From the NCBI GenBank assembly GCA_028707875.1, contig JAQWAC010000001.1:13829-77828 (forward strand): 64,000 nt of DNA, read 5' to 3'. Below are positions 7,625-42,207 of the stretch, piece by piece (position 1 is the first letter of the stretch; the number at the start of each line of letters is the position of its first letter). Position numbers and translations under genes: made by a program. This DNA comes from Candidatus Peribacteraceae bacterium (GTDB lineage Bacteria; Patescibacteriota; Gracilibacteria; Peribacterales; Peribacteraceae). The notes under the pieces were generated by a model. The model ran no database searches. It was given only the letters and a program-made list of their open reading frames with translations, and had not been told where the DNA came from.

Positions 7625-8068
7625 ATGTCCGACTCCTGGCTCGATCACATCCCCTCGCACGAACGCCAGCGCATCCTGAAGAGGCTACGCAGTCCGGAGG
7701 AATACGAGAAATTGCGTGAGAAGGTGAAAGGGCCGGAGGATCTGGAGCGGGAGATGGAGAGAAATGAGCGCATGGCCGAGCTGAAGTTTGCGATGGAGAC
7801 CGAACCGAAGTTGAAGAGCGCTCTGAAGGAGCAGGTGGTGGAGGATATCCAGGAACATGGGCTGGAGGAGGTTGTGGAAACAAGTGCATTACCCAAGGAA
7901 GCCAGATCGGCGTTGGAGGCAAGGAAATTCACTCTGACCATTGATGCCAACAAGGTAACGCACGAAGACCAGATCATGGTGGTTCCGGAGGGGAATGTGC
8001 AGGAAGCGGTTCCCGTGAAGCCGACTTTCAGTGACCGGTACGTCGGGCAATTCTCGCGTGACGTCTAA
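7625..8068 (+). CDS. hypothetical protein, highly charged (Glu/Lys-rich)
   Basis: ORF from MSDSWLDHIPSHERQRILKRL; no recognisable family. Confidence 0.55.
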   Translation: MSDSWLDHIPSHERQRILKRLRSPEEYEKLREKVKGPEDLEREMERNERMAELKFAMETEPKLKSALKEQVVEDIQEHGLEEVVETSALPKEARSALEARKFTLTIDANKVTHEDQIMVVPEGNVQEAVPVKPTFSDRYVGQFSRDV

Positions 8069-8251
8069 AGATGATGCGTGCACAGAGAGGCCGCCCGTCC
8101 CGGATTTTCAGAGAGACAGGAACAAGACCCCGAATGCACAGATAAAAAGGAATAGGCGCATGAGGCCGCGCAGCCTACGGCAATTCCGTCCAAATTTTCA
8201 AGTCCGTGAGGAAAAGAGCCCTTGCGTAAGCGCTTCCAACTGAACAAAATA

Positions 8252-8566
8252 TTATTTCAAAAAATCCTTTTGCAATCCCGAGAGTTTGGCCATGTCATCA
8301 TCAGGAGCGGTCTTGTTGGCGATCGTTTTTCCGCAGGTGATGCACCGGTGGACGATCATCCAGCCCTTGCTGCTGCGATGGTCCACTCCCACGGGTTCCA
8401 TGAGGCCGCCGCACGTGGATTCCCGGTCGCCCGGACCACGGTCATCCACATGCTTGGAGAACAGACATTGCGGACAGTGGTTGCGGTAGCTTCCTTTTAG
8501 GAGCGGTTTCACTTCGGCGCCGCAGTGTTCGCAGATGAAGGGCTCTTGGCGAGCAATGAAGGTCAT
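8252..8566 (-). CDS. RNHCP domain-containing protein
   Basis: Contains the literal SYRNHCPQC motif plus CEHC and CITC cysteine pairs. Start at MTFIARQ (ATG 8566). Confidence 0.75.
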   Translation of the reverse strand: MTFIARQEPFICEHCGAEVKPLLKGSYRNHCPQCLFSKHVDDRGPGDRESTCGGLMEPVGVDHRSSKGWMIVHRCITCGKTIANKTAPDDDMAKLSGLQKDFLK

Positions 8567-8567
8567 A

Positions 8568-8607
8568 GGAAACCGAAGAAACCAAAGATGCCGAAGAATC
8601 CGAGGAG
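8568..8607. repeat. left arm of the inverted repeat flanking the four-helix-bundle gene (CCGAAGA words)
   Basis: GGAAACCGAAGAAACCAAAGATGCCGAAGAATCCGAGGAG matches the reverse complement of 9081-9130. Confidence 0.65.
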
Positions 8608-8722
8608 TTCCATAAACTTGCAGAACCGATTGTACCGCTTCCAGATTCACAAAGAAGCAAAAATGAAATATTTGGCAATTTGATGATGAAGATATTTCTT
8701 CGGTTCTCAGTACAGTTATTGC

Positions 8723-9079
8723 ATGCATATTCGCCCATACGAGAAGATAATTGCATGGCAGGAAGCTCATCAGCTGACTCTGTATATTTATAAACTGACA
8801 TCTGGATTTCCTTCACACGAACGATTCGGCCTAATTTCTCAAATGCGTCGTTCAAGCGCCAGTGTTCCTATCAATATTGCCGAGGGGAATGCAAAACGTT
8901 CGCATCGTGAGCGGGCATGTTATCTAGAAAGGGCATCTGCCTCACTTGAAGAACTGCACTATGAATGCGTTCTTGCGCGGGACCTTAGTTACCTGTCCTT
9001 TGCCGAGTACGGAATGTGTGATGATCATATTCAGCGTACGAGTTATCTTCTTACAAAACTTCGATCCAGTATTTGTTAA
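8723..9079 (+). CDS. four-helix-bundle protein (23S rRNA intervening-sequence protein / Avd-like family)
   Basis: AWQEAHQLTLYIYKLTSGFPSHERFGLISQMRRSSASVPINIAEGNAKRS and LEELHY are the family hallmarks. Confidence 0.85.
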   Translation: MHIRPYEKIIAWQEAHQLTLYIYKLTSGFPSHERFGLISQMRRSSASVPINIAEGNAKRSHRERACYLERASASLEELHYECVLARDLSYLSFAEYGMCDDHIQRTSYLLTKLRSSIC

Positions 9080-9080
9080 A

Positions 9081-9130
9081 GCCCTTCGGCTTCATTGGCT
9101 TCTTCGGCATCTTCGGCATCTTCGGCTTCC
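9081..9130. repeat. right arm of the inverted repeat flanking the four-helix-bundle gene
   Basis: Its reverse complement, GGAAGCCGAAGATGCCGAAGATGCCGAAGAAGCCAATGAAGCCGAAGGGC, aligns with 8568-8607. It ends at the ychF stop codon. Confidence 0.65.
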
Positions 9131-10225
9131 TCACACGTTGAACCGGAAATGCATCACGTCCCCGTCACGCACCACATATTCCTTTCCCTCCGCGCGCATC
9201 TTGCCGGCCTCCTTGGCCTTGAGCTCGCCTCCGAGCGTCACGTAATCCTGATAGGCGATCGTTTCCGCACGGATGAAGCCTTTCTCGAAGTCCGTGTGGA
9301 TGACGCCTGCGGCCTGCGGGGCCGTCCAGCCTTTGCGGATGGTCCACGCACGCACCTCCTGCGGTCCGGCGGTGAAGTAGGTCTGGTAGCCGAGGGCGGC
9401 ATAGGCGGCTTGGATGAGTTGTGAGAGGCCCGAGGAGTTCACGGAGAACTGCTTCAGGAAGGCCGCCGCCTCCTCTTCCGGAAGCTCCTGCACATCTTCT
9501 TCGATCTTGGCGGAAACAGTGATCACCTGCGCCGTGTCCGGGAGCTTCAGTTGCCTGCGGGCTTCGTGGATGCTCACGGTGTGCAGCTGGTCCTCGGCCA
9601 CATTGGCCGCGTAGACGACGGGCTTGAGCGTGAGGAGGTTGAACTGTTTCGCAATCAATTCCTCATCGGCGGGGAGCGGTGCGGTGATCGCCATCTGTCC
9701 GGCCTTCAGTGCGGTGAGAATCTTTTCGAGAACGACGAGCTCCTTCACCTTCTCTTTATCTCCTGTGCGTGCTTCGCTCTGCAACTTCTTCTGCCTTTTC
9801 TCGAGCGAATCCATGTCGGAGAGGATCAGTTCCACTTCCACGGTCTCGCGGTCACGGGCGGGGTCCACGGATCCTTCCACATGGATGACATCGTTGCCGG
9901 GGAAGAGACGTACCACTTCGCAGAGCGCATCGACTTCCCGGATGGCGGCGAGGAATTTATTTCCGAGACCTTCCCCTTTGCTGGCGCCGCGGACGAGGCC
10001 GGCGATATCCACGAATTCGATGGCGGCGGGGATGATCTTCTCGGGCTGCACGAGATCGGCAAGTTTCTTCAGGCGTTCATCCGGCACCTCCACAATGCCC
10101 ACATTCGGTTCGATGGTGCAGAACGGATAGTTTGCCGCCTGGGCGCCGCGGGTGCGCGTGAGTGCGTTGAAGAGCGTCGATTTGCCGACGTTTGGCAGGC
10201 CTATGATTCCGATTCGAAGTGCCAT
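9131..10225 (-). CDS. ychF: redox-regulated ribosome-binding ATPase YchF
   Basis: MALRIGIIGLPNVGKSTLFNALT, FCTIEPN, FVDIAGLV, C-terminal TGS-like domain. Confidence 0.95.
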   Translation of the reverse strand: MALRIGIIGLPNVGKSTLFNALTRTRGAQAANYPFCTIEPNVGIVEVPDERLKKLADLVQPEKIIPAAIEFVDIAGLVRGASKGEGLGNKFLAAIREVDALCEVVRLFPGNDVIHVEGSVDPARDRETVEVELILSDMDSLEKRQKKLQSEARTGDKEKVKELVVLEKILTALKAGQMAITAPLPADEELIAKQFNLLTLKPVVYAANVAEDQLHTVSIHEARRQLKLPDTAQVITVSAKIEEDVQELPEEEAAAFLKQFSVNSSGLSQLIQAAYAALGYQTYFTAGPQEVRAWTIRKGWTAPQAAGVIHTDFEKGFIRAETIAYQDYVTLGGELKAKEAGKMRAEGKEYVVRDGDVMHFRFNV

Positions 10226-10290
10226 GGAGGAGCACGGGATTATTGATGCCTGAGGGCGATTTGTCCAAGGATTTCAGGGGGAGGGGACAG

Positions 10291-10318
10291 TTGACAAATC
10301 TAAGAAAAAAGTTAATAT
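10291..10318 (+). promoter_or_regulatory. candidate promoter TTGACA-N16-TAATAT
   Basis: TTGACA at 10291-10296 and TAATAT at 10313-10318, 16 nt before the ATG at 10335. Confidence 0.4.
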
Positions 10319-10334
10319 ATCTACCTTTGTTTCT

Positions 10335-11522
10335 ATGCATTTCAAGCGCCTCTTCACCACGATCCCGGCGATTCTTCTCCTGCTGACGGGCTTCGCGCCC
10401 ACGGCGTCAGCCGTGACGTTCTCCGATGCCGTCGGTACGGTCTACGATTCCTCTTTCTCCTATCTTTCCGATCGCAACATCATTCAAGGGTATTCGGACG
10501 GCTCCGGACGCCCTGATTCTCCGTTGAACCGTGCCGAAGCGCTGAAGGTTGTCTTGAATCTCGACAGCGAAACACAGTCGCGCGTCACGTGGTTTCAGTC
10601 ACACATGCCTCCGCTCTCCCTCTTCACGGATGTGAGCCAGTCGGAATGGTATGCGCCCTATGTGGAGACAGCGTTCGAGAAGAATCTGATCACCGGTTAT
10701 CCGGACGGTTCTCTTCGGCCGGGCCAACTCCTTCGCGTGGAAGAGGCCGTGGCTCTTCTCATGCGTTCCACGGGTGAGGACAGCAAGGCCGCCGAGCCCG
10801 CGGATCTTTCACTCTACATCGAGAATCGCGGCAATGAGTGGTTTACCTCTTCCATCAATGCGGCCGTCCGTAAGAATCTTATCATGCACTACGGTCGTCT
10901 CCGCCTGAATGCCGCCATCACGCGCGGCCAATTCTTCGACATGGCGTACCGTCTCCATTCCATCCGTGCCGGCAACGAGACCGCCTATACGGGACATGAA
11001 CCTGCGGATCTTCCTCCGTCACTCCCGATGCATGCACGGGATTCCGAAGTTGCGGCCGGCGGTTTTGCATACGGGTCGGAGAAGTACTTTGCGATCTCCA
11101 TGCCTTCTCTCGGCATCAGCGATCTCACCATTACGCATCCGCAGGATCCCTTCTCCAAAGAAGGCATTATGGAACCGCTTCAGTACGGCGTCGGGCATCT
11201 TTTCGGCTATCCCGGTGCGGGAGGCAAGGCGATGATCTACGGCCATTCGAGCGGTTATCCGTGGGACCTTTCCCAATTCACAAAGATCTTCCGTCAGATC
11301 AATAAGCTCAAGCAGGGAGATCGTGTCTATGTGACCTATGAGGGGACGGTCTACACGTACGAGGTGACCTACAACGAGACGGTGGAAGCGTCGGATACCT
11401 CGCCTTTCAATGACAACGGTTCGGGGGAGGAGTTGATTCTCTACACCTGCTGGCCGCCGGACAGCATTTCGCAGCGGTATCTGGTGCATGCGTTGCCGGT
11501 GGGGGCGGTGGCGGCACGCTGA
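10335..11522 (+). CDS. secreted SLH-domain (x3) / sortase fusion protein
   Basis: Signal peptide. Three SLH-like repeats (FSDAVG..IIQGYSDGSGRPDSPLNRAEAL; FTDVSQSEWYAPYVE..LITGYPDGSLRP; a third degenerate). C-terminal sortase fold with catalytic His (IYGHSSG), Cys (LILYTCWPP) and Arg (QRYLVHA). Confidence 0.8.
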   Translation: MHFKRLFTTIPAILLLLTGFAPTASAVTFSDAVGTVYDSSFSYLSDRNIIQGYSDGSGRPDSPLNRAEALKVVLNLDSETQSRVTWFQSHMPPLSLFTDVSQSEWYAPYVETAFEKNLITGYPDGSLRPGQLLRVEEAVALLMRSTGEDSKAAEPADLSLYIENRGNEWFTSSINAAVRKNLIMHYGRLRLNAAITRGQFFDMAYRLHSIRAGNETAYTGHEPADLPPSLPMHARDSEVAAGGFAYGSEKYFAISMPSLGISDLTITHPQDPFSKEGIMEPLQYGVGHLFGYPGAGGKAMIYGHSSGYPWDLSQFTKIFRQINKLKQGDRVYVTYEGTVYTYEVTYNETVEASDTSPFNDNGSGEELILYTCWPPDSISQRYLVHALPVGAVAAR

Positions 11523-11978: not shown

Positions 11979-12347
11979 TTACTGGTTTTCGGCTTCCTCA
12001 AGGTCCTGCACAACGTTATTGAGCTCATTGAGCAGACAACGCGAGCGGCGCAGGGCACTCTGGCCCGGGCAGTACATCTGGATGATCTCGGGGGCCGCGG
12101 TGTGGGTGTCGATCGGGTTGCCGATACGCTGCGTGCGCCACTCGTAGTTCGGACGTGGCTGACCTTCGTCTTCGATGCCGAGCATCTTCGCCGCATTCAC
12201 GCTGCGGGGATTGCGGTAGACGGTATCGGCGCGGGCGACGAGCATCGCGCTCCATTCATTGTATTGTGAGGCTGCGGCACCGAGCAGCAGTCCCACGAGA
12301 ATCCCGCCGAGGAAGGCGAGGAGGGTGACTTGATGGCGTTTTGCCAT
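11979..12347 (-). CDS. small membrane-anchored protein, paralog 2 (YRNxRS and YCxGxSxxRRxRCL motifs)
   Basis: N-terminal TM (VTLLAFLGGILVGLLLGAAA). Shares YRNPRS and MYCPGQSALRRSRCLLNELNNV with the upstream paralog. Confidence 0.7.
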   Translation of the reverse strand: MAKRHQVTLLAFLGGILVGLLLGAAASQYNEWSAMLVARADTVYRNPRSVNAAKMLGIEDEGQPRPNYEWRTQRIGNPIDTHTAAPEIIQMYCPGQSALRRSRCLLNELNNVVQDLEEAENQ

Positions 12348-12386
12348 GGGAGAGAGAGGAAAAGAAATAAGAAATGGAGATAATGA

Positions 12387-12758
12387 TCAATTGCCGTTCA
12401 GGCGATAGAGGACGCCATTCAGATACTGGATGAGGCACCGCGTGCGGCGCTGATGCGATGTTCCCGCGCAATAATCGGGAACGGGCGTGATGGACGCCGG
12501 CTCGTGACGGCTGTCCGCAGGTTGATCATCCGCGGAACGGACTCCCGGAATCTCCGCGCTGGTCCCGTGAATCGTTTCATTCTGAATGCTGCGCGAATTT
12601 CTGTATTCGGTTGTATTCGTGCGTGAAACCCCCTGTGCGGCGCCGGGGTTCATACCGGAATAGGCGACTTGTGCGAGCTGTGTGACGCTCGCGGAGACGA
12701 GCGCTCCCGCGACGACACTCGCCATAATCGCCACGAGGAGGTGTGTACGTTTGACCAT
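12387..12758 (-). CDS. small membrane-anchored protein, paralog 1 (YRNxRS and YCxGxSxxRRxRCL motifs)
   Basis: N-terminal TM (LLVAIMASVVAGALVSA), YRNSRS, DYCAGTSHQRRTRCLIQYLNGV. Confidence 0.7.
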   Translation of the reverse strand: MVKRTHLLVAIMASVVAGALVSASVTQLAQVAYSGMNPGAAQGVSRTNTTEYRNSRSIQNETIHGTSAEIPGVRSADDQPADSRHEPASITPVPDYCAGTSHQRRTRCLIQYLNGVLYRLNGN

Positions 12759-12942: not shown

Positions 12943-15423
12943 TTATCCGATTCTCCGCAGGATCTCTCTGTTGACGAACTCCTTTTGCCTTCCGTATGTC
13001 AGGCGTGACAGTTGCTTAAAGGCTTCGGACGCCTGCGGATCTTTGGCGTAGGTGGTTTCCAGCCACGGACGCGGGACTTCGATGGTGAAGGGGCGGGAGG
13101 GTTTGCCGTCGATGCAGAGCTTCATGGATCCCTTGAAGGCATCCATATTCACGAGATCCTGTTCCGAGAAGACCGGTGCCATTTCCTTGGCACAGACTTC
13201 CGCATCCTGCGGACCGATTTTGTAGAACATCATCGTTCCGATGTTGCCGAAGATCGCACCCTTCAGGCTCGTCTTGCCGGAGAGTTTGTCGTCCTTCTCC
13301 AACTGGTCGATATACTGGTGAGCGAGGATGAGGCCCAGACGGTATTTGCGTGCCTCGGAGAGGATGGATTCGATCGATTCCGTGATGAAGTTCTGGAACT
13401 CGTCGATGTAGAGGAAGAAGTCCCTGCGCTTGCTGTTGTCCTGCTGCTGGCGGCGCATGGCGGCCACCTGAATCTTGTTCACGAACATCATGCCCAGCAG
13501 TTGCGAGTTGATGTCGCCGATGAGACCTTTGCTGAGGTTTGCAAGCAGAATCTTGCCCGAGTTCATCACCTCCGAAATATCGAAGGCGCTCTTGGTCTGC
13601 CCCACGATGTTGCGGATGAGCGTGTTGGTCGTGAATTGTCCGAACTTGGCGGCGAAGTAGGGGATCATCTCCTGCTTCTCCCTCTGGCCTGTCATGGTCA
13701 TCTGCTTCTCCCAGAAGGAGCGGACGATGGGATTCTTCACGCGGGAGACCTTGTATTTCTGCCACTCCTCGTCGGTGAAGAGCTTCACGAGGTCGGTGAT
13801 CGCGCCGCCCTCCTCTTCGTCGTCCATGAGCGTCAGACAGCCGTTGCGGAAGTAGTCCTGAATGCGCGGGCCGAAGACTTCGTTGCCGAACATCTTCACC
13901 ATCATGTTCATCGCATCGAGGGCGATGAGGTCTTTTTCCTCCGGCGTCTTTCCTTCCAGAAGGTTCAGGCCCATGGGGCGCTCGGTATCCGCCGGATTGA
14001 AGTAGATCACGTCATCGGCACGCTCACGCGGAATGTAGGGCAGAAGGTCTTCGATGAGCGAACCGTGCGGATCCACGACGCACATGCCTTTGCCCTGATG
14101 GAAGTCCTGCCGCGCCATGATCTGGAGAATCGAGGATTTGCCCGTACCCGTTTGTCCGATGATGTAGAAGTGGCGGAAACGGTCCTCGTTCTTCATGAAG
14201 ATCTTGCGCTTTTCGCCGCGATAACTGTTGATGCCGAGGAAGAGTCCCTCTTCGGGGATATCCTTCGGGGAAGTCGCAATCTTAAAGTTCTGCCACTTGA
14301 TTGTTTCCACTTTGTTGTATTTGGTGTTCGGCAGATGGAAGAAGCTCGTGAGTTCGCTCGCACCCAACAGCATCTTTGGCGAGGCGATCGCCTGGAGGAG
14401 GGAACGTCTGGGACTGCGCCGGATGAAACGTTCGACGATGGTCCGCTGGTTCACGAAGTGAGGTTTCCGGAAGCTGTTTCCACGCACGTCATCGAACTGC
14501 GCGAATGCGGCGAGGACGGTCTCCAGCAGAATCTTCGAGCGCGCCTGCGTCTCCGCGGACGTCACGATGCGCACGACGCAGTGGAAGCCGGGACTGCCTG
14601 CCTTCTCATCCACGGCTTTGCTGTACTCCTCAGCCATCTGCGAGACCCGTTCGCCGGTGGATTGATTCTCCTGCTGCGGGGTGAGATCGCTGCCCGGAAG
14701 AAACATGCTTGCGACGGCGCCGAGCCAGGTGAGGGGATTCAGGAAACTTCCGTGCTTCTTCTTCGGATTGATCAGACGGATGGCCTCGTCCTGCAGTTTC
14801 TTCTGCCAGCCTCCATCGGCGGGGGTGAGGACGAACTGGATCGCAGCACCTTCGGAGATTTTCAGTTTCGAGAATGCATTGGTGATGGTGTTGAGCGGAT
14901 CGCTCTTGAGTTGCTGATAGGTCCGGAAGACGGACGTGAAGGGTTTCTTCGGGAGAACAACCTGTGCGGAGACCACGGAGGTGTCCGTGAAAATGTTGTA
15001 GTCCTCGACTTCATCGATGATGGTATCCGGATAGAAGGAGGTGAATTGCTTCTCGATCAGATGTGCGACCTTCCGCGGGCAGACGACGAAGAAAAGAATT
15101 TCGCCTGCGAGTGCGGCGTACTCCATCGAGAAGAACGGATGCCCTTTCCAGAAGCGGTCGAAATCGGACGAATGAAGGCTGTGGAGGGACTGATAGAGGT
15201 GATCCATGACTCCGAGCACTTCCTTGAAATCCTGCCCGGTGGAGAACTTTTCCGACTCTCTCTCCTTATCCTCCTTGCTCTCCTTCTTCGGCACCAGCAG
15301 TTGCAGGAAGACGAGGTCCTGCTCGCGTTTGAGATCCGCGCGAAATCTCAGAAACCAGAGGATTCCCCAGCCGAGTGCGGCGGCTGCAAGAATGCCGATG
15401 AGCAGGAGGACGAAGTCCATCAC
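12943..15423 (-). CDS. membrane-anchored VirD4/TraD/TrwB-like P-loop ATPase (T4SS coupling-protein-like), paralog 1
   Basis: N-terminal TM, an uncharacterised ~400-aa middle region, Walker A (HFYIIGQTGTGKSS), VVDPHGSLIEDLL, Walker B (FFLYIDEFQNF), AHQYIDQL. Full-length paralog of 38661-41330. Confidence 0.8.
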   Translation of the reverse strand: MMDFVLLLIGILAAAALGWGILWFLRFRADLKREQDLVFLQLLVPKKESKEDKERESEKFSTGQDFKEVLGVMDHLYQSLHSLHSSDFDRFWKGHPFFSMEYAALAGEILFFVVCPRKVAHLIEKQFTSFYPDTIIDEVEDYNIFTDTSVVSAQVVLPKKPFTSVFRTYQQLKSDPLNTITNAFSKLKISEGAAIQFVLTPADGGWQKKLQDEAIRLINPKKKHGSFLNPLTWLGAVASMFLPGSDLTPQQENQSTGERVSQMAEEYSKAVDEKAGSPGFHCVVRIVTSAETQARSKILLETVLAAFAQFDDVRGNSFRKPHFVNQRTIVERFIRRSPRRSLLQAIASPKMLLGASELTSFFHLPNTKYNKVETIKWQNFKIATSPKDIPEEGLFLGINSYRGEKRKIFMKNEDRFRHFYIIGQTGTGKSSILQIMARQDFHQGKGMCVVDPHGSLIEDLLPYIPRERADDVIYFNPADTERPMGLNLLEGKTPEEKDLIALDAMNMMVKMFGNEVFGPRIQDYFRNGCLTLMDDEEEGGAITDLVKLFTDEEWQKYKVSRVKNPIVRSFWEKQMTMTGQREKQEMIPYFAAKFGQFTTNTLIRNIVGQTKSAFDISEVMNSGKILLANLSKGLIGDINSQLLGMMFVNKIQVAAMRRQQQDNSKRRDFFLYIDEFQNFITESIESILSEARKYRLGLILAHQYIDQLEKDDKLSGKTSLKGAIFGNIGTMMFYKIGPQDAEVCAKEMAPVFSEQDLVNMDAFKGSMKLCIDGKPSRPFTIEVPRPWLETTYAKDPQASEAFKQLSRLTYGRQKEFVNREILRRIG

Positions 15424-15659: not shown

Positions 15660-16052
15660 TTATTTGTTCCACATCTCCCTCGCCTTCATCAGCGTCATCA
15701 CCTTGTCGAGCAGCGTCTTGATCGTCATTTCGCTCTTGATGAAAAAGTCATCGGCTCCAAGCTCAATGCTGCGTTCCTTATTCTTGGTATCTCCGAAGTT
15801 CGTGAGGACGATCACCGGGAACTTCCGCTGCTCGCGCGGGAAGCGTTCCAGAACACCGAAACCGTCGAGAATCGGCATGTTCAGGTCCAGAATGAGGAGG
15901 TCCGGAACCTGCTTTGTGATCTCGTCGATCGCCTCCTGTCCGTTCTTCACCGTACGCAGCTGAAAGCCCGCAAGCGAGAACTTCTTCACATAGACGTCCC
16001 GGAGGACGGCATCGTCTTCGGCGATAATGATGTTGGCTTGGGCGGGCATCAA
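15660..16052 (-). CDS. stand-alone response regulator receiver domain (CheY-like)
   Basis: IIIAEDD, LLILDLNMP (phospho-acceptor Asp), VLTNFGD, FFIKS. No output domain. Confidence 0.85.
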   Translation of the reverse strand: MMPAQANIIIAEDDAVLRDVYVKKFSLAGFQLRTVKNGQEAIDEITKQVPDLLILDLNMPILDGFGVLERFPREQRKFPVIVLTNFGDTKNKERSIELGADDFFIKSEMTIKTLLDKVMTLMKAREMWNK

Positions 16053-33583: not shown

Positions 33584-33928
33584 TCACTTGATGCTGAGCA
33601 CGAAGTTCACAATGGCCGATGCGAGCATGATCACGAGGAGGCCGACAATGGTATAGATAATCATCTTCTTTCCCGTTTGCTTCACCTGCTCGTTTCCGAC
33701 GATGATGGCGATACCTGCGAAGATGATCATGGCGACGGCAAGAATCGCCACGAATGTCAGGACTTTCTGGACGATATTGATGATGGTTGTCTTGAGGTTG
33801 TCGCCGCTTCCACCGACTTGTATTCCGCCCGCATCACCGATGCTGATCGCAGCGAGGGCGATGCGCGGGATAAATACGAGGGTGAATGCGCAGAGGCGCA
33901 ACCAGGCGTGATGGAAAAAGTGTCTCAT
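33584..33928 (-). CDS. TrbC/VirB2-like T4SS pilin family protein, paralog C
   Basis: Signal peptide, short exposed segment, two TM helices. IINIVQKVLTFVAILAVAMIIFAG...KKMIIYTIVGLLVIMLASAIV. Confidence 0.75.
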   Translation of the reverse strand: MRHFFHHAWLRLCAFTLVFIPRIALAAISIGDAGGIQVGGSGDNLKTTIINIVQKVLTFVAILAVAMIIFAGIAIIVGNEQVKQTGKKMIIYTIVGLLVIMLASAIVNFVLSIK

Positions 33929-33932
33929 ATAG

Positions 33933-34283
33933 TTATGAAACGAAGGAGAGAACAAGGGCGACGATTGCTTTGGAAAGCAGGATGATGAGGAGGCCGATCA
34001 CAGTATAGATGATCATCTTCTTCGCCTTTTCCTTGGAGCTTTCATCGTACGATCCCACGATCATCCAGACACCGGCGAAGATGATCATGGCAACGGCAAG
34101 CAGAGCCACATACGTGAGGACCGTATTGACGATCTTGGTGATGGATGCTTTCAAATCCCCGCCGCCCCCCACATTGATCTCCCCCGCACCTCCGAGCGTC
34201 GACGCTGCAGCGACGCGTGGAACGGTTATGAGCGTCAGTGCGCAAAGACGTGCCCACATTCGGGAGGAAAACACCTTCTTCAT
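33933..34283 (-). CDS. TrbC/VirB2-like T4SS pilin family protein, paralog B
   Basis: ITKIVNTVLTYVALLAVAMIIFAG...KKMIIYTVIGLLIILLSKAIV. Start at MKKVFSS (34283). Confidence 0.75.
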   Translation of the reverse strand: MKKVFSSRMWARLCALTLITVPRVAAASTLGGAGEINVGGGGDLKASITKIVNTVLTYVALLAVAMIIFAGVWMIVGSYDESSKEKAKKMIIYTVIGLLIILLSKAIVALVLSFVS

Positions 34284-34284
34284 G

Positions 34285-34689
34285 TTATTCGGCAAAGGAA
34301 ATAAAGAGGGAGACGATTCCTTTTGAGAGGAGAATGATGAGAAGTCCGATACCGGTATACAAGATGACCTTCTTGGCCGTTTCTTTCGCCTGGTCATTGC
34401 CGAAGCTGACGATCATATAGAAGCCGGCAAAGATAATGACACTCACGGCGATGATGGCGACGTAACTCAGGACCGTGTTCACAATTTTCCCGATCACCGC
34501 ACGGGGGCTCCCGCTTTTCACTCCCTGGATGTTTTCTCCCGCATTGATTCCAGCTTCCAATCCTCCGCTGTACACGGCGGCGGAGAGATGTTCGAATTCC
34601 GGCGCGACCTGAACGGCCGAGAACGCGAGCGCCGCGATGAAAAACATGACGGAGAGCAATGATCGCATGGGAGATGAGGTGGTTGTCAT
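34285..34689 (-). CDS. TrbC/VirB2-like T4SS pilin family protein, paralog A
   Basis: IGKIVNTVLSYVAIIAVSVIIFAG...KKVILYTGIGLLIILLSKGIV. Confidence 0.75.
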   Translation of the reverse strand: MTTTSSPMRSLLSVMFFIAALAFSAVQVAPEFEHLSAAVYSGGLEAGINAGENIQGVKSGSPRAVIGKIVNTVLSYVAIIAVSVIIFAGFYMIVSFGNDQAKETAKKVILYTGIGLLIILLSKGIVSLFISFAE

Positions 34690-35865: not shown

Positions 35866-37287
35866 ATGATGACCGGAAAAATGCACATCCACAGAACACC
35901 TCTCCATCGGCCGTGCCGCGCTCCGGTCCCTCTGCACATTCGCGTCCTTCTCGTTCTGATTTCCGTGTTCGCTCCCGTGATGGCGGTGGGCGTGAGTAAG
36001 AATGCGGCCCATGAGCAGGAATTTATCATCACGGCGTACTATTCGCCGGTTCCCGGTCAGTGTTGTTATGTCATGGGCGGTCTGCAGGCGGACAAAGTAT
36101 TGAACGGAAACGGAGTCCGCGGCGCCGACGGGACCGAAGTGCATCCGGGCATGATCGCGGCACCCGCGAGCTACGCATTCGGCACGGTTGTCGTGTTACC
36201 GGGAGTCGGACGCTTCACGGTTCACGACCGCGGCGGGGCGATTCAGGAACTCGATTCGGGCGCGCATCGTCTGGATATCTGGGTGGGCTACGGCGAAGAA
36301 GGATTGGCGCGCGCCCTCGCGTTCGGCGTGCAGCATATCCGCGGGACGGTCTATCCCGTCGGGGGCAATCAGCCGAAGGAGAAGTTTGTGATGGAGAATC
36401 TTCCGGCAGTCATCGCGCGTCTGCGACCGTTCCAAGTTGCCGGGAATTCCCTGCTTTCGGTGACGCCGCGGAGCGGAGAACAAGGTCTCTCCGTTGAGCT
36501 TCTGCAACGTTCCTTGAAGGATGCGGGGTACTTCTCCCAGCGCGTCACCGGAAAATTCGGATCGACGACAGCGGAAGCTCTGCGTGCATTCAACGATGCA
36601 TTCGGTCTCTCGAATGAACCGTCGGATCGTCTTTCGGAGAAGAGTGCCGCCACACTCACGGCCGCGGTGCAACGCATCGCCGCCCGCCCTCCGGTGCAGA
36701 AAGCCGTTGATAAAACCGCATCGGCCCAGGCGATACGCTCCGCCCAGAGGACACTCCGGTTCCTCGGCTTCTACAGCGGACGAACCAACGGTACCTATGA
36801 TGACAATCTGTTTGACGCCATTCTTCGATTCCAGCAGAAGAAAGGTCTTGTCGGGTCGGCGGAGAATGCCGGAGCGGGACGTATCGGTCCGCTCACGCGC
36901 GGCAAGCTCACCGAATCATGGGACAGAAGGATTGTCGCTGCGATGGCCCGGCGTCTTCTGGCACTGCATCGCGTGGAAACGGTGCTCGATGAACGCGGAA
37001 AAAACGTCGCACGTTTTCTCGAAACGGGTGACAATGGCGATCAGGTGGCGCTTCTCCAGCGTCTCCTCTCCGATCGCGGATTCTTCCCGTCGGAAAAAAT
37101 CAACGGGAATTACGGTGCACTCACACAGTCGGCCGTCCTGAAATATCAGATGGCCCGCAAACTCATCACATCCGAGAGCGATGCGGGTGCGGGGCAGGTG
37201 GGGCCGCTGACGCTCAGAGCACTTCGTTCCGAGGAGCGCAAAGAGTTGTATTTGCTCGTGCGCAGTGAAGGATGGAGGGCGCTATAG
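35866..37287 (+). CDS. secreted 3D-domain (MltA-like barrel) protein with three peptidoglycan-binding (PG_binding_1-like) repeats
   Basis: ITAYYSPVPGQ...GADGTEVHPGMIAAP...HDRGGAI...LDIWVG, then three repeats of the type GDxGxxVxxLQxxLxxxGxxxxxxxGxxGxxTxxAV. Confidence 0.8.
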   Translation: MMTGKMHIHRTPLHRPCRAPVPLHIRVLLVLISVFAPVMAVGVSKNAAHEQEFIITAYYSPVPGQCCYVMGGLQADKVLNGNGVRGADGTEVHPGMIAAPASYAFGTVVVLPGVGRFTVHDRGGAIQELDSGAHRLDIWVGYGEEGLARALAFGVQHIRGTVYPVGGNQPKEKFVMENLPAVIARLRPFQVAGNSLLSVTPRSGEQGLSVELLQRSLKDAGYFSQRVTGKFGSTTAEALRAFNDAFGLSNEPSDRLSEKSAATLTAAVQRIAARPPVQKAVDKTASAQAIRSAQRTLRFLGFYSGRTNGTYDDNLFDAILRFQQKKGLVGSAENAGAGRIGPLTRGKLTESWDRRIVAAMARRLLALHRVETVLDERGKNVARFLETGDNGDQVALLQRLLSDRGFFPSEKINGNYGALTQSAVLKYQMARKLITSESDAGAGQVGPLTLRALRSEERKELYLLVRSEGWRAL

Positions 37288-37357: not shown

Positions 37358-38398
37358 ATGCAGAAGTTCATTCTGACACTCCTCGTATTTACCGTGTGCG
37401 TTCCTGCGGTTTCCGCCGCGGAAAATGTCTCACGTCGTGACGGATTTCTTCTCCTTTGGGAGGGGATTGCCCGCAGTGCGGATGAGACGAGGGAGAAGCC
37501 GTTCACCGACGTTCCGGGAGGGTCGGGGGGCTTTACGGAAATCACGTACGCCAAAGCACGCGGACTCATCGATGACGGAGAGAGTTTTCGTCCGGAGGAT
37601 TCTCTGACACTCGGCGACGCTCTGCTCTGGCTTTTCAGAACACGAAATGTCGATGATATCGACGCCATGACGCCGGAATCGCTTCCGACACTGCTCGGCA
37701 ACTATCCGATTGCGGGTCAGGATGCGGAAACGGACGAACCGGTTGGAACTTCGGAAAAACTGCTTGCCTTAGCGAATAAACTGGACACGATGCTCGCGGA
37801 GGAGGTGCATGAAGTGAGTCTGTATTCGGAGAAGTTCCACGGGAAGGGGACGGCCTTCGGCGAGTCGTTCGACATGTACGCACTCACTGCGGCACATCGC
37901 ACCTTCCCCGCGAACACTCTCGTGAAGGTGACGAATGTGGAGAACGGCAAGAGCGTCATTGTGCGCATCAATGACCGCGGCCCGTACGTGGAAGGTCGCG
38001 ATATGGATCTGAGTCTGGCGGCCTTCACGATGATCGCACCGCGCGGACAGGGAGTCGCACGGGCCCGCTTCCAGCGACTCGGGGATGCATCTCTCGTGGA
38101 TGCCTGCACGGGGGAGACGCGTCGCTATCAGAAACGCATCACGCGTGACGTGCGTTTTCATCGCGGAGTGCCGTGGAAATCCGCCATCGGCGAACCGCTC
38201 GTGCTCGGGGCCAATCGTCCGTTCGTCGTTCGCGATGTCACCTATCCGGACGGGACCGTTGAGTGGTTTGAGGATTGGATCCTTCCCGAGGAGGCCTTCA
38301 CGTTGACCGCTTCCATCCCGGGAATCTACACATTCCGTTTCTCAAACGGAACGGGGCATACACGCAAAATGCAGATGGAGATGTGGCAGTGTCGATAA
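37358..38398 (+). CDS. RlpA-like double-psi beta-barrel lytic transglycosylase with N-terminal SLH-like segment
   Basis: YSEKFHGKGTAFGESFD, TAAHRTFPANTLVKVTNVENGKSVIVRINDRGPY. Signal peptide present. Confidence 0.8.
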   Translation: MQKFILTLLVFTVCVPAVSAAENVSRRDGFLLLWEGIARSADETREKPFTDVPGGSGGFTEITYAKARGLIDDGESFRPEDSLTLGDALLWLFRTRNVDDIDAMTPESLPTLLGNYPIAGQDAETDEPVGTSEKLLALANKLDTMLAEEVHEVSLYSEKFHGKGTAFGESFDMYALTAAHRTFPANTLVKVTNVENGKSVIVRINDRGPYVEGRDMDLSLAAFTMIAPRGQGVARARFQRLGDASLVDACTGETRRYQKRITRDVRFHRGVPWKSAIGEPLVLGANRPFVVRDVTYPDGTVEWFEDWILPEEAFTLTASIPGIYTFRFSNGTGHTRKMQMEMWQCR

Positions 38399-38660: not shown

Positions 38661-41330
38661 ATGCCCAAATCTGCTATAATTATTCGAATTCTTCTCTATC
38701 CTTTTGATCGAACCCATTTGATTCCATTCCTCGACATCGCATTCTGGCCTCTCCTCTGGATCGCTGCCGCAGCGATCGGCACTGCGACAGTGCCGGATTT
38801 CTGGGGATCCGTCGGGGGATGGTATATGTCCGCGCCACTGCGGAACACCGGCATCATTATTCTTACGTATCTCGTGTGGAAGTGGTGTAAGTGGAACTTT
38901 CGCTATGTCTACGCTGTCTACCGGTCGCGAACACTCGTGACGATGAAGATTCTTCTTCCGCGTTCGGATTCCAAGATTGATCAGGAAAAAAGGACGGAGA
39001 AGGACTTCAAGGAGAAAGTGGCCGCCATGGAGCAGTTATACCGTGCACTCTGGGAAGTACAGAGCCTCACCTTCTGGCAGGAACTGCATTACTGGTTCTT
39101 TCAGTACCTCACGATCAGTCTGGAGCTCTATGTGGAGAAGAACCAGCTCATGCTCTACGTCGTCACACAACCGAGTCTCGTCTCCGTCGTGGAGAAGCAG
39201 ATTACCGCCTTCTATCCTGCGGCGGAGGTGACCAATCATCCGACGCCCAATCTCTGGCCGAAGGGACTCAAGTTCATCGGATACAACATGATTCCCGGAA
39301 AATCCTTCATGTACCCGATCCGGAGTTATGAGCACATGCAGGACGATCCGCTGAACGGCATTGCAAACGTTCTCAGTAAAATGGAGGAGGGGGAGACGGC
39401 GGGGGTCCAGATTGTGCTTTCGCCGTCTTCTGAAAAAAAGTGGGGCAGGCGCACGAAGCACTTCGCATCCGAAAAATTCAAGGGGAAGAGCGAGAATATG
39501 TTCAGTCATATTCCGATTCTCGGATCGCTTCTGACAGTGCTCGGAGGGGTGGCGACGGGGACCGAAGGCTCATCGTTCGCTCCCGGCGCGACCAAAGGCG
39601 ATTCATTTGTCCGCATGATTCAGCCTGAGGAGGAGCTCTACAAGCGCATGGGCGAGAAGGCCGGCATGAGTTACTTCTTCGCTTCCGTGCGCATCGCCGC
39701 CGCCGCCAAGACGTGGAAGCGCACGTTTGAGATCACGAACAACCTTCAGGTCGCATTCAACGCCTTCAAAGATGTCTACGGCAACTACTTCCAGAATCGA
39801 CGCATGTTCGTGGATTTCTTCCCGCTCTCACTCAATGCGCCGATCATTTACTCGCTCTGGAAGCAGCGCATCAATGGATTCTGGCATCGGCGTTCTCTTC
39901 TGGTTGAGAAGGAACTGGCGGCCCTCTACCACTTCCCGGACAGCCGCTACAACAAGATGCCGATCATCGAGTGGATCACCTATCGCGTCCTTCCGCCGCC
40001 GCCCAATGTGCCCGCCGAAGGCATTGTCATCGGTGTCAGCAAATTCCGCGCGCAGGAAACGAAGATCCGTTTCATGGATACGGATCGCACGCGTCACCAT
40101 TACATCATCGGAAAATCCGGAACGGGAAAATCCGCGCTGCTCTCATGGATGAGCCGTCAGGACATCGCCCACGGCGACGGCGTGTGCATGGTCGATCCGC
40201 ACGGAGACCTCATCGAGGATGCGCTCGCCCATACGCCCAAAGAGCGTGCGAAGGAGATCGTGCTCTTCGATCCGGCGGACGGCGAGCGGCCGATGGGTCT
40301 GAATCTTCTGGAGGCCAAGACGCCCGAGGAGAAGGATCGCGCCGCCATCGATGCGATGGAAATCTTCATCAAGCTCTTCGGAAACGAAATCTTCGGTCCG
40401 CGCATTCAGCACTACTTCCGCAACGGTTGTCTGACGCTCATGGACGACGAGGAGGAAGGTGCGACGCTTATCGATGTGCCGAGGCTGTTCGTGGACGACG
40501 AGTTCCAGCACTTCAAGGTCGCCAAGTGCAAGAATCCCGTGGTGCGGAGCTTCTGGGAGCACGAGATCGCCAAGACCGGTGCACGCGAAAAAGAGGAGAT
40601 GATCCCGTACTTCTCCGCGAAGTTCGGGCCCTTCATCACGAATACGACGATGCGCAACATCATCGGACAGCCGAAGAGCGCCTTCAACATCCGCGAGATT
40701 ATGGACACGGGCAAGGTGCTCCTCGTGAACCTCTCCAAGGGGAAGATCGGCGATGTCAACGCGCAGCTTCTCGGCCTCATCTTCGTGAACAAGGTGAACA
40801 TGGCCGCGCTCTCCCGCGCCGATGTCCCGCGCGAGAAGCGTCGCCGCTTCTACCTGTATGTCGACGAATTCCAGAACTTCGTGACGGATGCCTTCGCCAC
40901 GATCCTGTCGGAGGCACGCAAGTACGAACTCGGTCTGATCATGGCGCACCAGTACATCGGGCAGCTCGTGGGGAAAACGGAGTCGTACGGTCAGGCGAGT
41001 ACCAAAATGCGCGATGCGGTCTTCGGTAACGTCGGCACGATCTCCAGCTTCAAGATCGGCGCGGAGGACGCCGAGTACATGGCCAAGGAATACGCGCCGG
41101 ATCTCTCCGAACAGGACGTCATCGGCATCCCGAACTTCAATTGCTACGTGAAGCTTTCCATCAACAACGTCCCCTCGCGTCCCTTCAGTATGGCGACGAT
41201 CTGGGACGAGTCGGACCGCAACGAGGAGCTCGGGGCACTGATCAAGGAATACAGCCGCATGAAGTACGGCAGGAAGAAGGTCTTCGTCGATCAGGAAATT
41301 GAGGATCGCATCGGGATCGTGAGAGGTTGA
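38661..41330 (+). CDS. membrane-anchored VirD4/TraD/TrwB-like P-loop ATPase (T4SS coupling-protein-like), paralog 2
   Basis: Several N-terminal TM segments, Walker A (HHYIIGKSGTGKSA), MVDPHGDLIEDAL, Walker B (FYLYVDEFQNF), AHQYIGQL. In the 81-aa Walker-A stretch I aligned by hand, 53 positions are identical to paralog 1. Confidence 0.8.
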   Translation: MPKSAIIIRILLYPFDRTHLIPFLDIAFWPLLWIAAAAIGTATVPDFWGSVGGWYMSAPLRNTGIIILTYLVWKWCKWNFRYVYAVYRSRTLVTMKILLPRSDSKIDQEKRTEKDFKEKVAAMEQLYRALWEVQSLTFWQELHYWFFQYLTISLELYVEKNQLMLYVVTQPSLVSVVEKQITAFYPAAEVTNHPTPNLWPKGLKFIGYNMIPGKSFMYPIRSYEHMQDDPLNGIANVLSKMEEGETAGVQIVLSPSSEKKWGRRTKHFASEKFKGKSENMFSHIPILGSLLTVLGGVATGTEGSSFAPGATKGDSFVRMIQPEEELYKRMGEKAGMSYFFASVRIAAAAKTWKRTFEITNNLQVAFNAFKDVYGNYFQNRRMFVDFFPLSLNAPIIYSLWKQRINGFWHRRSLLVEKELAALYHFPDSRYNKMPIIEWITYRVLPPPPNVPAEGIVIGVSKFRAQETKIRFMDTDRTRHHYIIGKSGTGKSALLSWMSRQDIAHGDGVCMVDPHGDLIEDALAHTPKERAKEIVLFDPADGERPMGLNLLEAKTPEEKDRAAIDAMEIFIKLFGNEIFGPRIQHYFRNGCLTLMDDEEEGATLIDVPRLFVDDEFQHFKVAKCKNPVVRSFWEHEIAKTGAREKEEMIPYFSAKFGPFITNTTMRNIIGQPKSAFNIREIMDTGKVLLVNLSKGKIGDVNAQLLGLIFVNKVNMAALSRADVPREKRRRFYLYVDEFQNFVTDAFATILSEARKYELGLIMAHQYIGQLVGKTESYGQASTKMRDAVFGNVGTISSFKIGAEDAEYMAKEYAPDLSEQDVIGIPNFNCYVKLSINNVPSRPFSMATIWDESDRNEELGALIKEYSRMKYGRKKVFVDQEIEDRIGIVRG

Positions 41331-41373: not shown

Positions 41374-42207
41374 ATGTCATGGGGTCTCGTCCTCTCCGGC
41401 GGAGCCGCGTTCGGGATTGCGAACGGAGGAGTGATCGAAGTGCTGGAGCGCGAGAAGCTCAAGCCGGATTGCGTTGCAGGCAGCAGCATGGGGGCGATCA
41501 TCGCGGCGACGTATGCGATGGGGATTCCGGTTTCGGAACTTCATGCATGTGTACGCAAGCTGACGTTGGGCAATGTTGCGTGCTTGAGCAAACATCCGCT
41601 GAAAGGAGGCTTATGTGGCGGGATTCTCCGTCAAAATCTGGAGCATCACCTCGAACCGCTCCTCGGAGATGCACGAATTGCGGATTGCAAAATTCCGTTT
41701 GTCTGCACGGCCGGTCGGGTCAAAAAACCCATTCAATGGCTTCATATCCTGAAGAAAGGATTTACGGAGGAGATCCTTTCCGGAGTGGAGTTCCACGTGT
41801 TCTCTCCGGAAACACGCCTCCTCGATGCGGTGATGGCATCGAGTGCCATTCCGGTGGTGTTTTCGCCCGTGGAGATCGACGGAAAACAGTATGTGGATCT
41901 CTGCCACTTCGGCCCCATTCCCGCGAGAGCGCTTCAGTCGAAGTGCCATCCTGAGAAAATTATTGCGACGGACACCTATCCCACATACGAGGCTTTGCGG
42001 AATTTCCTGCCCGGAGGCTGGAATGAATTTCTGGAGGCGGGTTATGCGGAGATCAGGAAGAGCAAAGCGGTGTGTGATCTCCTCATCAAACCTGTCATGC
42101 CTTTCGCCCTGTTCCGTTTCGACAAAGGCGAGGAATTCTGGCAGGCGGGCAAAAAAGCGGCCGCAAAATGCATTGCGGATGTGCGTGCGATCATTCAAAG
42201 ACAGTGA
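41374..42207 (+). CDS. patatin-like phospholipase
   Basis: LSGGAAFGIANGGV glycine-rich loop and the GSSMG (GxSxG) nucleophile motif. Confidence 0.8.
   Translation: MSWGLVLSGGAAFGIANGGVIEVLEREKLKPDCVAGSSMGAIIAATYAMGIPVSELHACVRKLTLGNVACLSKHPLKGGLCGGILRQNLEHHLEPLLGDARIADCKIPFVCTAGRVKKPIQWLHILKKGFTEEILSGVEFHVFSPETRLLDAVMASSAIPVVFSPVEIDGKQYVDLCHFGPIPARALQSKCHPEKIIATDTYPTYEALRNFLPGGWNEFLEAGYAEIRKSKAVCDLLIKPVMPFALFRFDKGEEFWQAGKKAAAKCIADVRAIIQRQ

Follow-up and report, generated by a model that had tools for sequence, protein, structure and literature searches.

What purpose do two genes for type IV coupling proteins (T4CPs) serve on a chromosome of the Patescibacteria (the candidate phyla radiation, CPR), where both lie among housekeeping genes? 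The question is raised by a stretch of 64,000 nucleotides (hereafter, the window, meaning the whole stretch analyzed; contig JAQWAC010000001.1, positions 13,829 to 77,828) from a metagenome-assembled genome (MAG) of an ultra-small member of the Peribacteraceae, 1.32 Mb in size and 98.6% complete. A preliminary description, made from the DNA letters alone, had noted two full-length paralogs of a membrane-anchored VirD4/TraD-like ATPase in this window and proposed for them a cellular, non-conjugative role. We refer to the two proteins as a1 (copy 1, also P0001 and WIN1) and a2 (copy 2, also P0002 and WIN2).

Patescibacteria account for much of bacterial diversity and seemingly live by drawing building blocks from host cells. 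Their type IV secretion system (T4SS), whose role was described as "completely unknown" in a 2024 perspective (PMC11665869), is essential in the sole species tested (PMC10633639), and T4CP-like ATPases, being encoded by nearly all genomes of the phylum, suggest themselves as the motor or the substrate gate of this system. A recent survey counted 5,713 VirD4-type T4CP homologues, termed "orphan," in 2,918 Patescibacteria genomes and reported relaxases in 103 Patescibacteria genomes only (Quinonero-Coronel et al. 2025, PMC12102498). Here, we describe the domain architecture, ancestry, and genomic context of a1 and a2, and weigh what such proteins might do on a chromosome.

Two paralogous coupling proteins

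The two open reading frames, translated with table 11, and the features of the encoded proteins are as follows.

12943..15423, minus strand: a1, T4CP paralog of 826 aa (open reading frame and translation)
15319..15420, minus strand: a1 N-terminal transmembrane helix, aa 2-35 (Kyte-Doolittle peak at residues 1-29; one long helix, H2-35, in the AlphaFold2 (AF2) model)
14230..15318, minus strand: a1 N-terminal domain (N-domain), aa 36-398, PF26449-type, with a predicted fold like the N-terminal domain (NTD) of VirB4 (hidden Markov model (HMM), AF2, Foldseek)
12946..14229, minus strand: a1 TrwB-like ATPase domain, aa 399-826, with a helical insertion at about aa 494-607 (Pfam, PDB profile matches, Foldseek)
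14134..14157, minus strand: a1 Walker A, GQTGTGKS, aa 423-430 (G423, G426, G428, and K429 invariant in 68 homologues)
13387..13419, minus strand: a1 Walker B, FFLYIDEFQNF, aa 669-679 (D674 and E675 invariant in 68 homologues; aligns with LWLFIDEL of TrwB)
13315..13359, minus strand: a1 motif SEARKYRLGLILAHQ, aa 689-703 (R692, K693, and Q703 invariant in 68 sequences; aligns with LTKGRKAGLRVVAGLQ of TrwB)
38661..41330, plus strand: a2, T4CP paralog of 889 aa (open reading frame and translation)
38712..38900, plus strand: a2 hydrophobic N-terminal region, aa 18-80, with at least two predicted membrane segments (hydropathy peak at 18-45; second stretch, TGIIILTYLVWKW, seen in the sequence)
38931..40037, plus strand: a2 N-domain, aa 91-459 (aligned to the a1 N-domain; 376 bits with the N-domain HMM)
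40110..40133, plus strand: a2 Walker A, GKSGTGKS (sequence motif)
40848..40880, plus strand: a2 Walker B, FYLYVDEFQNF (sequence motif)

BLASTP aligned residues 10-826 of a1 with residues 64-885 of a2, with 360 identities in 840 positions (43%; 62% positives; E = 0), collinearly through both halves, so that the full-length paralogy suggested at the outset holds. The earlier hand count of 53 identical positions in 81 residues around Walker A was reproduced exactly by the best ungapped 81-residue window containing GTGKS, and the N-terminal segments that had been set opposite each other (LYQSLHSL/LYRALWEV and QFTSFYPDT/QITAFYPAA) pair up in the same BLASTP alignment. The frame of a1 opens with GTG at 15423 and contains an ATG one codon downstream; given that its orthologs are 824-826 aa long, the ATG is probably the start. 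Basic residues (RFRADLKR) follow the transmembrane helix and, by the positive-inside rule, the remainder of a1 would be cytoplasmic. The closest homologues of a1, 72-86% identical, come from Candidatus Peregrinibacteria and Peribacteraceae MAGs, and the orthologs are named 'type IV secretion system DNA-binding domain-containing protein' by NCBI.

Family placement of the ATPase domain

Both a1 and a2 are T4CPs of the VirD4/TrwB type, not HerA, FtsK, or VirB4. The three Pfam families of this type, searches for which had been proposed in the preliminary description, all yielded scores at or above their cut-offs: TrwB_AAD_bind (44.1 bits for a1 and 39.6 for a2, with a cut-off of 20.5), T4SS-DNA_transf (33.7 and 27.5; cut-off 20.1), and TraG-D_C (22.6 and 24.0; cut-off 22). 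When a profile derived from 68 family members was compared with the PDB sequences, TrwB (7e-7) and DotL (5.5e-5) were retrieved, with alignment of both Walker motifs (A and B) and of the RK...Q motif. The AF2 model of full-length a1 (pLDDT 88.8, pTM 0.78), in which the helices of residues 494-607 lie between core strands, matched TrwB in Foldseek with a TM-score of 0.67-0.68, normalized to TrwB. A small phylogenetic tree of ATPase cores groups the family with TrwB, apart from three VirB4s and FtsK, at SH-aLRT values of 82-93, a support that is weak because the branches are long. Residues K429, D674, E675, R692, and Q703 (a1 numbering) are invariant across the 68 homologues and, judged by these residues, both copies look catalytically competent; the motif SEARKYRLGLILAHQ of a1 is a candidate for the arginine finger and sensor glutamine.

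More specialized and more distant families did not fit. Matches to the NCBIfam models TraD_Ftype, SXT_TraD, and conju_CD1115 were local, at best 37.7-39.1 bits, far under the cut-offs of 250-647, and CedD, too, gave a local match only, with a score far under its cut-off. HerA, which the preliminary description had named along with FtsK as a possible true home of these proteins, was rejected given that the DUF87 and HerA_C matches (13-25 bits) are confined to some 50-60 residues around Walker A and that helicase_HerA of NCBIfam scored 16 bits against a cut-off of 970. Assignment to VirB4 by sequence was likewise rejected: neither CagE_TrbE_VirB nor AAA_10 was assigned, and P-loop_TraG covered the P-loop only, at 12.5 bits against a cut-off of 25.8.

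FtsK_SpoIIIE of Pfam did not match either window copy, and a canonical FtsK with the FtsK_4TM, alpha, motor, and gamma domains is encoded by a separate gene of the window (60908-63166, minus strand). These observations bear on the possibility that the two T4CPs stand in for FtsK as septal chromosome translocases. The proteins belong to the same FtsK/HerA superfamily and are membrane-anchored, Woesebacteria-like loci have Xer-type recombinase genes in the vicinity, and several classes have DnaX or DnaE genes as neighbors, but a canonical FtsK is present in 121 of the 121 Patescibacteria genomes sampled, and the stand-in scenario is effectively refuted.

The N-terminal domain and its plasmid relatives

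The N-terminal region of some 400 residues, which had been reported as not assignable to any domain, can be assigned by way of its homologues. A precomputed match to PF26449 over this region is annotated in each of the 120 homologues listed (72-100% identical), and for the window proteins the assignment is by homology to these. The name of this family is probably DUF8128; a literature search for the accession PF26449 returned no mention of it. The first 400 residues of a1 matched proteins in 200 of 201 evenly sampled Patescibacteria genomes, covering 169 of 169 genera, usually twice in a genome and within frames of about 800-900 aa. An exhaustive search yielded 1,261 representatives at the 50% clustering level, in all of which the domain is N-terminal; in a few of these (P0213, P0216, P0223, P0249, P0258, and P0265; also G169:C12:79625-80797), it heads proteins of 1,400-2,000 aa.

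The domain is not specific to CPR: its ancestry is common with that of T4CPs from plasmids of Gram-positive bacteria. A search of PLSDB with the ATPase half brought up, as its nearest relatives, long proteins from Bacillus plasmids (about 24-28 kb), Embleya/Streptomyces plasmids, and archaeal plasmids. The Bacillus and Embleya/Streptomyces proteins show only 26-31% identity over the ATPase part. The Bacillus T4CP (904 aa) and the Embleya T4CP (812 aa) adjoin VirB4-like ATPases, conjugal-transfer proteins, and a "replication-relaxation family" protein, with a PrgI-family protein in addition in Embleya. Alignment of the CPR family with these two T4CPs by hhalign reached a probability of 100% over 669-703 columns that include the N-domain, and an HMM of the N-domain alone matched the N-terminal regions of the plasmid proteins with 95.6 and 54.8 bits. 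The same HMM did not detect the domain in the homologues from archaeal (pAH1, Natrinema) and Rhodococcus plasmids, nor in PcfC, TrwK, PrgJ, or the VirB4 of the genome itself. Also among the plasmid relatives, a Sulfitobacter plasmid (L091) encodes a 395-aa homologue that lacks the N-domain and is 34% identical to the ATPase half of a1. Equating the 'replication-relaxation family' with the MobL relaxase of pLS20 is not supported by a published account, in which the pLS20 Rel carries a different InterPro entry.

Modeling of the N-terminal region, a check proposed in the preliminary description, produced a confident structure (a1 residues 36-398 alone; pLDDT 88.9, pTM 0.84). In a Foldseek search with this model, 13 PDB chains were matched at E<1e-3, all of them TrwK, the VirB4 of R388 (E of 2.6e-6 to 2.9e-4; TM-scores of 0.40-0.46 over some 420 columns), and the next, unrelated fold followed at E = 1.3e-2. 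The model of full-length a1 aligns with full-length VirB4 over about 900 columns. Sequence comparison of the N-domain with the NTDs of VirB4, including the VirB4 of this genome, TrwK, PrgJ, and all PDB sequences, gave no signal. The evidence from structure prediction moderately supports a fold like that of the VirB4 NTD. In the T4SS structures of R388, the NTD of VirB4 is found within the inner-membrane complex, beside VirB3 and VirB8.

Paralog history

In a tree of 78 family members, a1 and a2 each fall in an ortholog clade of their own, both within one Gracilibacteria/Peribacteria clade. A second tree, built on N-domains and including the two copies of each of 12 complete genomes from other classes, resolves two ancient lineages: lineage a comprises full-length proteins of about 830-860 aa, and lineage b comprises proteins that are either long (880-907 aa) or split, with an N-domain-only gene of 395-468 aa. 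Within lineage a, a1 and a2 share one clade (SH-aLRT 99%), and their duplication is therefore specific to the class. The split N-domain-only genes, which encode a membrane helix and lack Walker A (L122, L123, L124, L127, L128, and L129, from G192, G051, G008, G024, G015, and G013, respectively), form one clade with the long b-type paralogs, so the family exists in both split and fused forms.

The earlier count of two copies is correct for the window and too low for the genome, which encodes at least four paralogs. The additional ones, on contigs C9 (an 820-aa open frame cut by the contig end, with an N-domain score of 84.7 bits) and C39 (a fragment), are most similar to b-type proteins. Such multiplicity could by itself account for tolerated disruptions of single genes. 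The C9 paralog (P0123, G000:C9:1-2463) scores only 25 bits with TrwB_AAD_bind, below its match to the PADLOC model 'mad8' discussed below, and ends in a Lys/Glu-rich C-terminal tail of about 150 aa.

Genomic neighborhood

Both T4CP genes are located in core-genome contexts, not mobile-element contexts. The chromosomal position among housekeeping genes noted at the start was borne out: a1 is surrounded by genes for YchF, a sortase-SLH protein, EF-Ts, and a stand-alone receiver, and a2 by genes for an M24 peptidase, a PG_binding protein, a DPBB protein, patatin, MscL, YbaB, YceG, and Der, whereas GyrB, HisS, LeuS, and the canonical FtsK are encoded farther off in the window. GC content is uniform across the window and the same as that of the genome, and no integrase or other mobile-element genes were found among the scanned neighbors of both copies. 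In distant Peribacteria, the neighbors of the T4CP are DnaE, AspS, and a PG_binding protein. The neighboring features of the window that bear on the T4CPs are as follows.

15660..16052, minus strand: stand-alone response-regulator receiver upstream of a1 (Pfam Response_reg, 80.8 bits)
33584..34397, minus strand: two VirB2-like T4SS pilin genes, 4.3 kb upstream of a2 (Pfam T4SS_pilin, 36.6 and 32.5 bits; cut-off 26.6)
35866-37287, plus strand: PG_binding_1 protein directly upstream of a2 (Pfam)
37358-38398, plus strand: DPBB/RlpA-like protein directly upstream of a2 (Pfam)

Parts of these arrangements recur in relatives. In four loci (L007, L009, L011, and L013), the a1 ortholog has a gene of the receiver family 1-3 genes upstream; in related Peribacteria, a2 orthologs have the DPBB gene 1-2 genes upstream (L022, L025, L026, and L028), and L026 and L028 contain the PG_binding gene as well. 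The two T4SS_pilin genes near a2 are accompanied by a PKD partner gene.

Two further neighbors were considered as possible partners and rejected. A patatin-like phospholipase gene (41374-42207, plus strand) starts 43 bp past a2 on the same strand. Patatin-like phospholipases are an enzyme class typical of secreted effectors. The status of a conserved effector of a2 was rejected for this protein, a counterpart being found in 0 of 80 related loci, and the linkage therefore appears specific to this genome. Downstream of a1, at 11979-12758 (minus strand), two tandem paralogs of about 122 aa are encoded, each carrying a single membrane helix at the N-terminus, the motif YRN(P/S)RS, and, at the C-terminus, a Cys pair in the pattern C-x-G-x-S...RR-x-RC-L; as conserved partners of a1 they were likewise rejected, their motif not being found beside 13 a1 orthologs.

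Outside the Gracilibacteria, many classes show a different, co-directional order, c3-T4CP-c1-DnaX (for example, L040, L043, L045, L050, L057, L071, and L080, with the T4CP at about 8001-10400), in which c3 (about 176 aa) lies upstream in 20 loci, c1 (about 211 aa) downstream in 23, and DnaX next in 18, often with CysS or CorA upstream; neither c1 nor c3 had a significant Pfam match. Typical CPR synteny around a Patescibacteria-type T4CP was also seen in many third-party-annotation (TPA) metagenome bins titled 'uncultured Gammaproteobacteria,' 'Nitrospirota,' or 'Methylomirabilota' (L055, L058, L059, L062, L065, L066, L068, L070, L073, L074, L078, L080, L082, and L085; L029 and L034), the titles of which are probably wrong, unless the contigs are mis-binned.

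The conserved context also bears on a role in anti-phage defense, as an ATPase like mad8 of MADS or of the HerA type. PADLOC 'mad8' matched the ATPase cores of a1, a2, and the third paralog with 41.6, 39.1, and 70.9 bits, respectively. However, these matches span the generic P-loop core only, in a resource that has no score cut-offs; presence in nearly every genome, in conserved synteny, is unlike a defense island; and no methyltransferase, nuclease, or Sir2 genes were seen among the neighbors. A literature search on PADLOC 'mad8' returned nothing relevant. We consider defense a highly improbable function for these proteins.

Secretion-system components and relaxases

The preliminary description had pointed out that a coupling protein normally accompanies a relaxase and a VirB4 ATPase and that the window contains neither. 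The absence of VirB4 from the window was confirmed, as was that of a relaxase for the two families searched, PF03432 and PF13814. The window does hold the T4SS pilin genes, however, and the genome holds a VirB4-like ATPase elsewhere (G000:C7:9724-12204; P-loop_TraG, 100 bits), among housekeeping genes. Across the 201 genomes of the N-domain sample, VirB4-like ATPases (PF19044) were found in 191 (95%), a co-occurrence so nearly complete that it does not discriminate between models. The VirB4-like frame is about 830-840 aa long in this class (G000, G082, and G165) vs about 600-650 aa in most other classes, a contrast that fits a fused vs a split, TrsD-like N-terminal module, parallel to the split and fused T4CPs.

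The relaxase family PF03432 (MOBP/Q) was present in 0 of 21 relatives, this genome included, and Replic_Relax (PF13814) was absent from this genome and from the sampled genomes of the class, with matches in 11 of 151 Patescibacteria genomes overall. A hidden relaxase of the replication-relaxation type, which is encoded beside the plasmid homologues, was rejected on these counts. Replic_Relax genes, where present, are sometimes multicopy (L094-L099, from G050, G138, G028, G125, G029, and G083) and may mark integrated elements carrying a plasmid-type long T4CP.

With no relaxase found by the two models, classical conjugation is unlikely, in agreement with the survey of the phylum (PMC12102498). 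It would nevertheless be conceivable that a1 and a2 are functional T4CPs of an integrated conjugative element and transfer DNA with an unrecognized relaxase: the family descends from plasmid T4CPs, the same survey notes that very different relaxases may await discovery (PMC12102498), and Replic_Relax does occur in those 11 genomes. Against this possibility stand the universality of the family across the phylum, its synteny in core housekeeping regions, the lack of any GC deviation or of integrase and mobile-element genes seen near either copy, and the absence of PF03432 and PF13814 from the genome and the sampled class members, which together render it very unlikely. The proposal of a cellular, non-conjugative role is supported in its second half, as far as PF03432 and PF13814 are concerned. 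A cellular role does not follow from the housekeeping neighbors, because the genome encodes VirB4, pilin genes lie about 4 kb from a2, PG_binding and DPBB genes adjoin it, and T4SS genes are scattered in this lineage.

A proposed role in the patescibacterial secretion system

The reading that we favor, to which we give about even credence, is that a1 and a2 are domesticated, non-conjugative ATPases that feed substrates to the CPR T4SS, docking through the N-domain and handling a cargo other than relaxase-bound DNA. Under this proposal, 'long' T4CPs would have been inherited from a monoderm conjugation system (MPF-FATA-like) and become fixed as core chromosomal genes of Patescibacteria. The proteins might form ATP-driven rings at the membrane, and the N-domain might dock these onto the scattered parts of the CPR T4SS, namely VirB4, VirB3/VirB6-like proteins, and the VirB2-like pilus. 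Docked rings could then feed or pull a macromolecular substrate through the T4SS apparatus, the cargo presumably being something other than relaxase-piloted plasmid DNA. As class-level in-paralogs, a1 and a2 are probably specialized for different partners or substrates, or may be partly redundant. Cooperation with the T4SS is favored because the N-domain and VirB4 are both nearly ubiquitous in the 201 genomes, because this genome has its own VirB4, and because pilin and PG_binding/DPBB genes lie beside a2; the idea of docking comes from the PDB matches of the N-domain model, those at E<1e-3 being TrwK/VirB4 throughout.

Several observations weigh against cooperation with the T4SS. In the survey, just 148 of the 5,713 T4CP homologues were near virB4 (PMC12102498), and a1 and a2 are not adjacent to virB4 in this genome either. 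In Southlakia epibionticum, the T4SS cluster is essential and contains no recognizable coupling protein, nor a relaxase (Wang et al. 2023, PMC10633639). A T4CP homologue encoded elsewhere in this species was reported as non-essential, in contrast to other T4SS genes, for which reason its exaptation was suggested (PMC12102498). Redundancy among paralogs could explain this non-essentiality. Five high-quality genomes encode an N-domain protein without a PF19044 match, and the likeness between the N-domain and VirB4 is structural only, with the TM-scores given above at an rmsd of 7-11 A and without a signal in sequence.

Alternatively, the long T4CPs, in their a and b lineages and, in other classes, with the split N-domain membrane subunit, might be an exapted membrane machine found throughout the Patescibacteria and independent of the T4SS, one that translocates another macromolecule, such as host-derived nucleic acid or a family of secreted proteins, without VirB4. 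Such independence would agree with T4CP genes that are almost never beside virB4 (PMC12102498), with the housekeeping surroundings of the window copies, and with the distinct c3-T4CP-c1-DnaX synteny kept in other classes; it would also accommodate the good genomes that keep a T4CP without a detectable VirB4, the existence of N-domain-only forms, and a T4CP that is non-essential where the T4SS is essential (PMC12102498). However, the closest relatives outside CPR belong to conjugation clusters, VirB4 co-occurs in the great majority of genomes (the 95% given above), a2 lies near pilin and cell-wall genes, and no alternative channel partner was identified in this analysis. We regard T4SS independence as the main rival, possible but less likely than a role in the T4SS.

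Beyond the T4SS-feeding role that we prefer, a bolder and rather unlikely scenario would have the long T4CPs keep a VirB4-like layout of two domains from an ancestor, which would place them in evolution between VirB4 and short VirD4/TrwB proteins, with the a and b paralogs, fused or split, plugging by their VirB4-like N-domain into the essential pilus-bearing T4SS as its missing motor for host-derived macromolecules (for instance, nucleic acids in nucleotide scavenging) rather than for plasmid DNA. The plasmid-derived N-domain, its likeness to the docking domain of VirB4, and the ancient paralog lineages point to concrete experiments on docking partners, redundancy, and cargo.

Comparison with known systems

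TrwB of R388, along with VirD4, TraD, and DotL, resembles the window proteins in its ATPase fold with a helical insertion, in the aligned Walker A, Walker B, and RK...Q motifs, and in its N-terminal membrane anchor. TrwB differs in its length of 507 aa, without a counterpart of the N-domain of 360 aa, and the identity in structural alignment is 13-14%. The TrwB gene adjoins that of its relaxase, whereas the window T4CPs are found in a genome without a PF03432 or PF13814 relaxase. VirB4 (TrwK) shares the two-part layout, its RecA ATPase being preceded by an N-terminal domain of some 400 aa, but shows no similarity at the sequence level; the Pfam models of VirB4 are unmatched by the window proteins, and the genome has its own, separate VirB4. 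VirB4 is not known to possess an N-terminal transmembrane helix of the T4CP kind.

The closest counterparts outside the phylum are the T4CPs of the Bacillus and Embleya plasmids, annotated as 'DUF87 domain-containing' or 'type IV secretory system conjugative DNA transfer family protein,' which combine the same N-domain with a TrwB-like ATPase in 812-904 aa. They are encoded on plasmids inside conjugation clusters, whereas the window copies are chromosomal.

Within the phylum, the orphan T4CPs of the published survey constitute this very family; they are chromosomal, number about two per genome, seldom lie near virB4, and lack a relaxase (PMC12102498). The window itself is thus mostly confirmatory, an ordinary member of a catalogued family, and the family, its chromosomal location, and the idea of a non-conjugative function are already in the literature. 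The survey only counts T4CPs with CONJScan profiles and, in the passages covered by our search, does not mention the N-terminal domain, the a and b lineages, or the link to long plasmid T4CPs (PMC12102498). What is new here, namely the assignment of the N-domain, the plasmid ancestry, and the history of the paralogs, amounts to refinements of this picture rather than a new kind of system.

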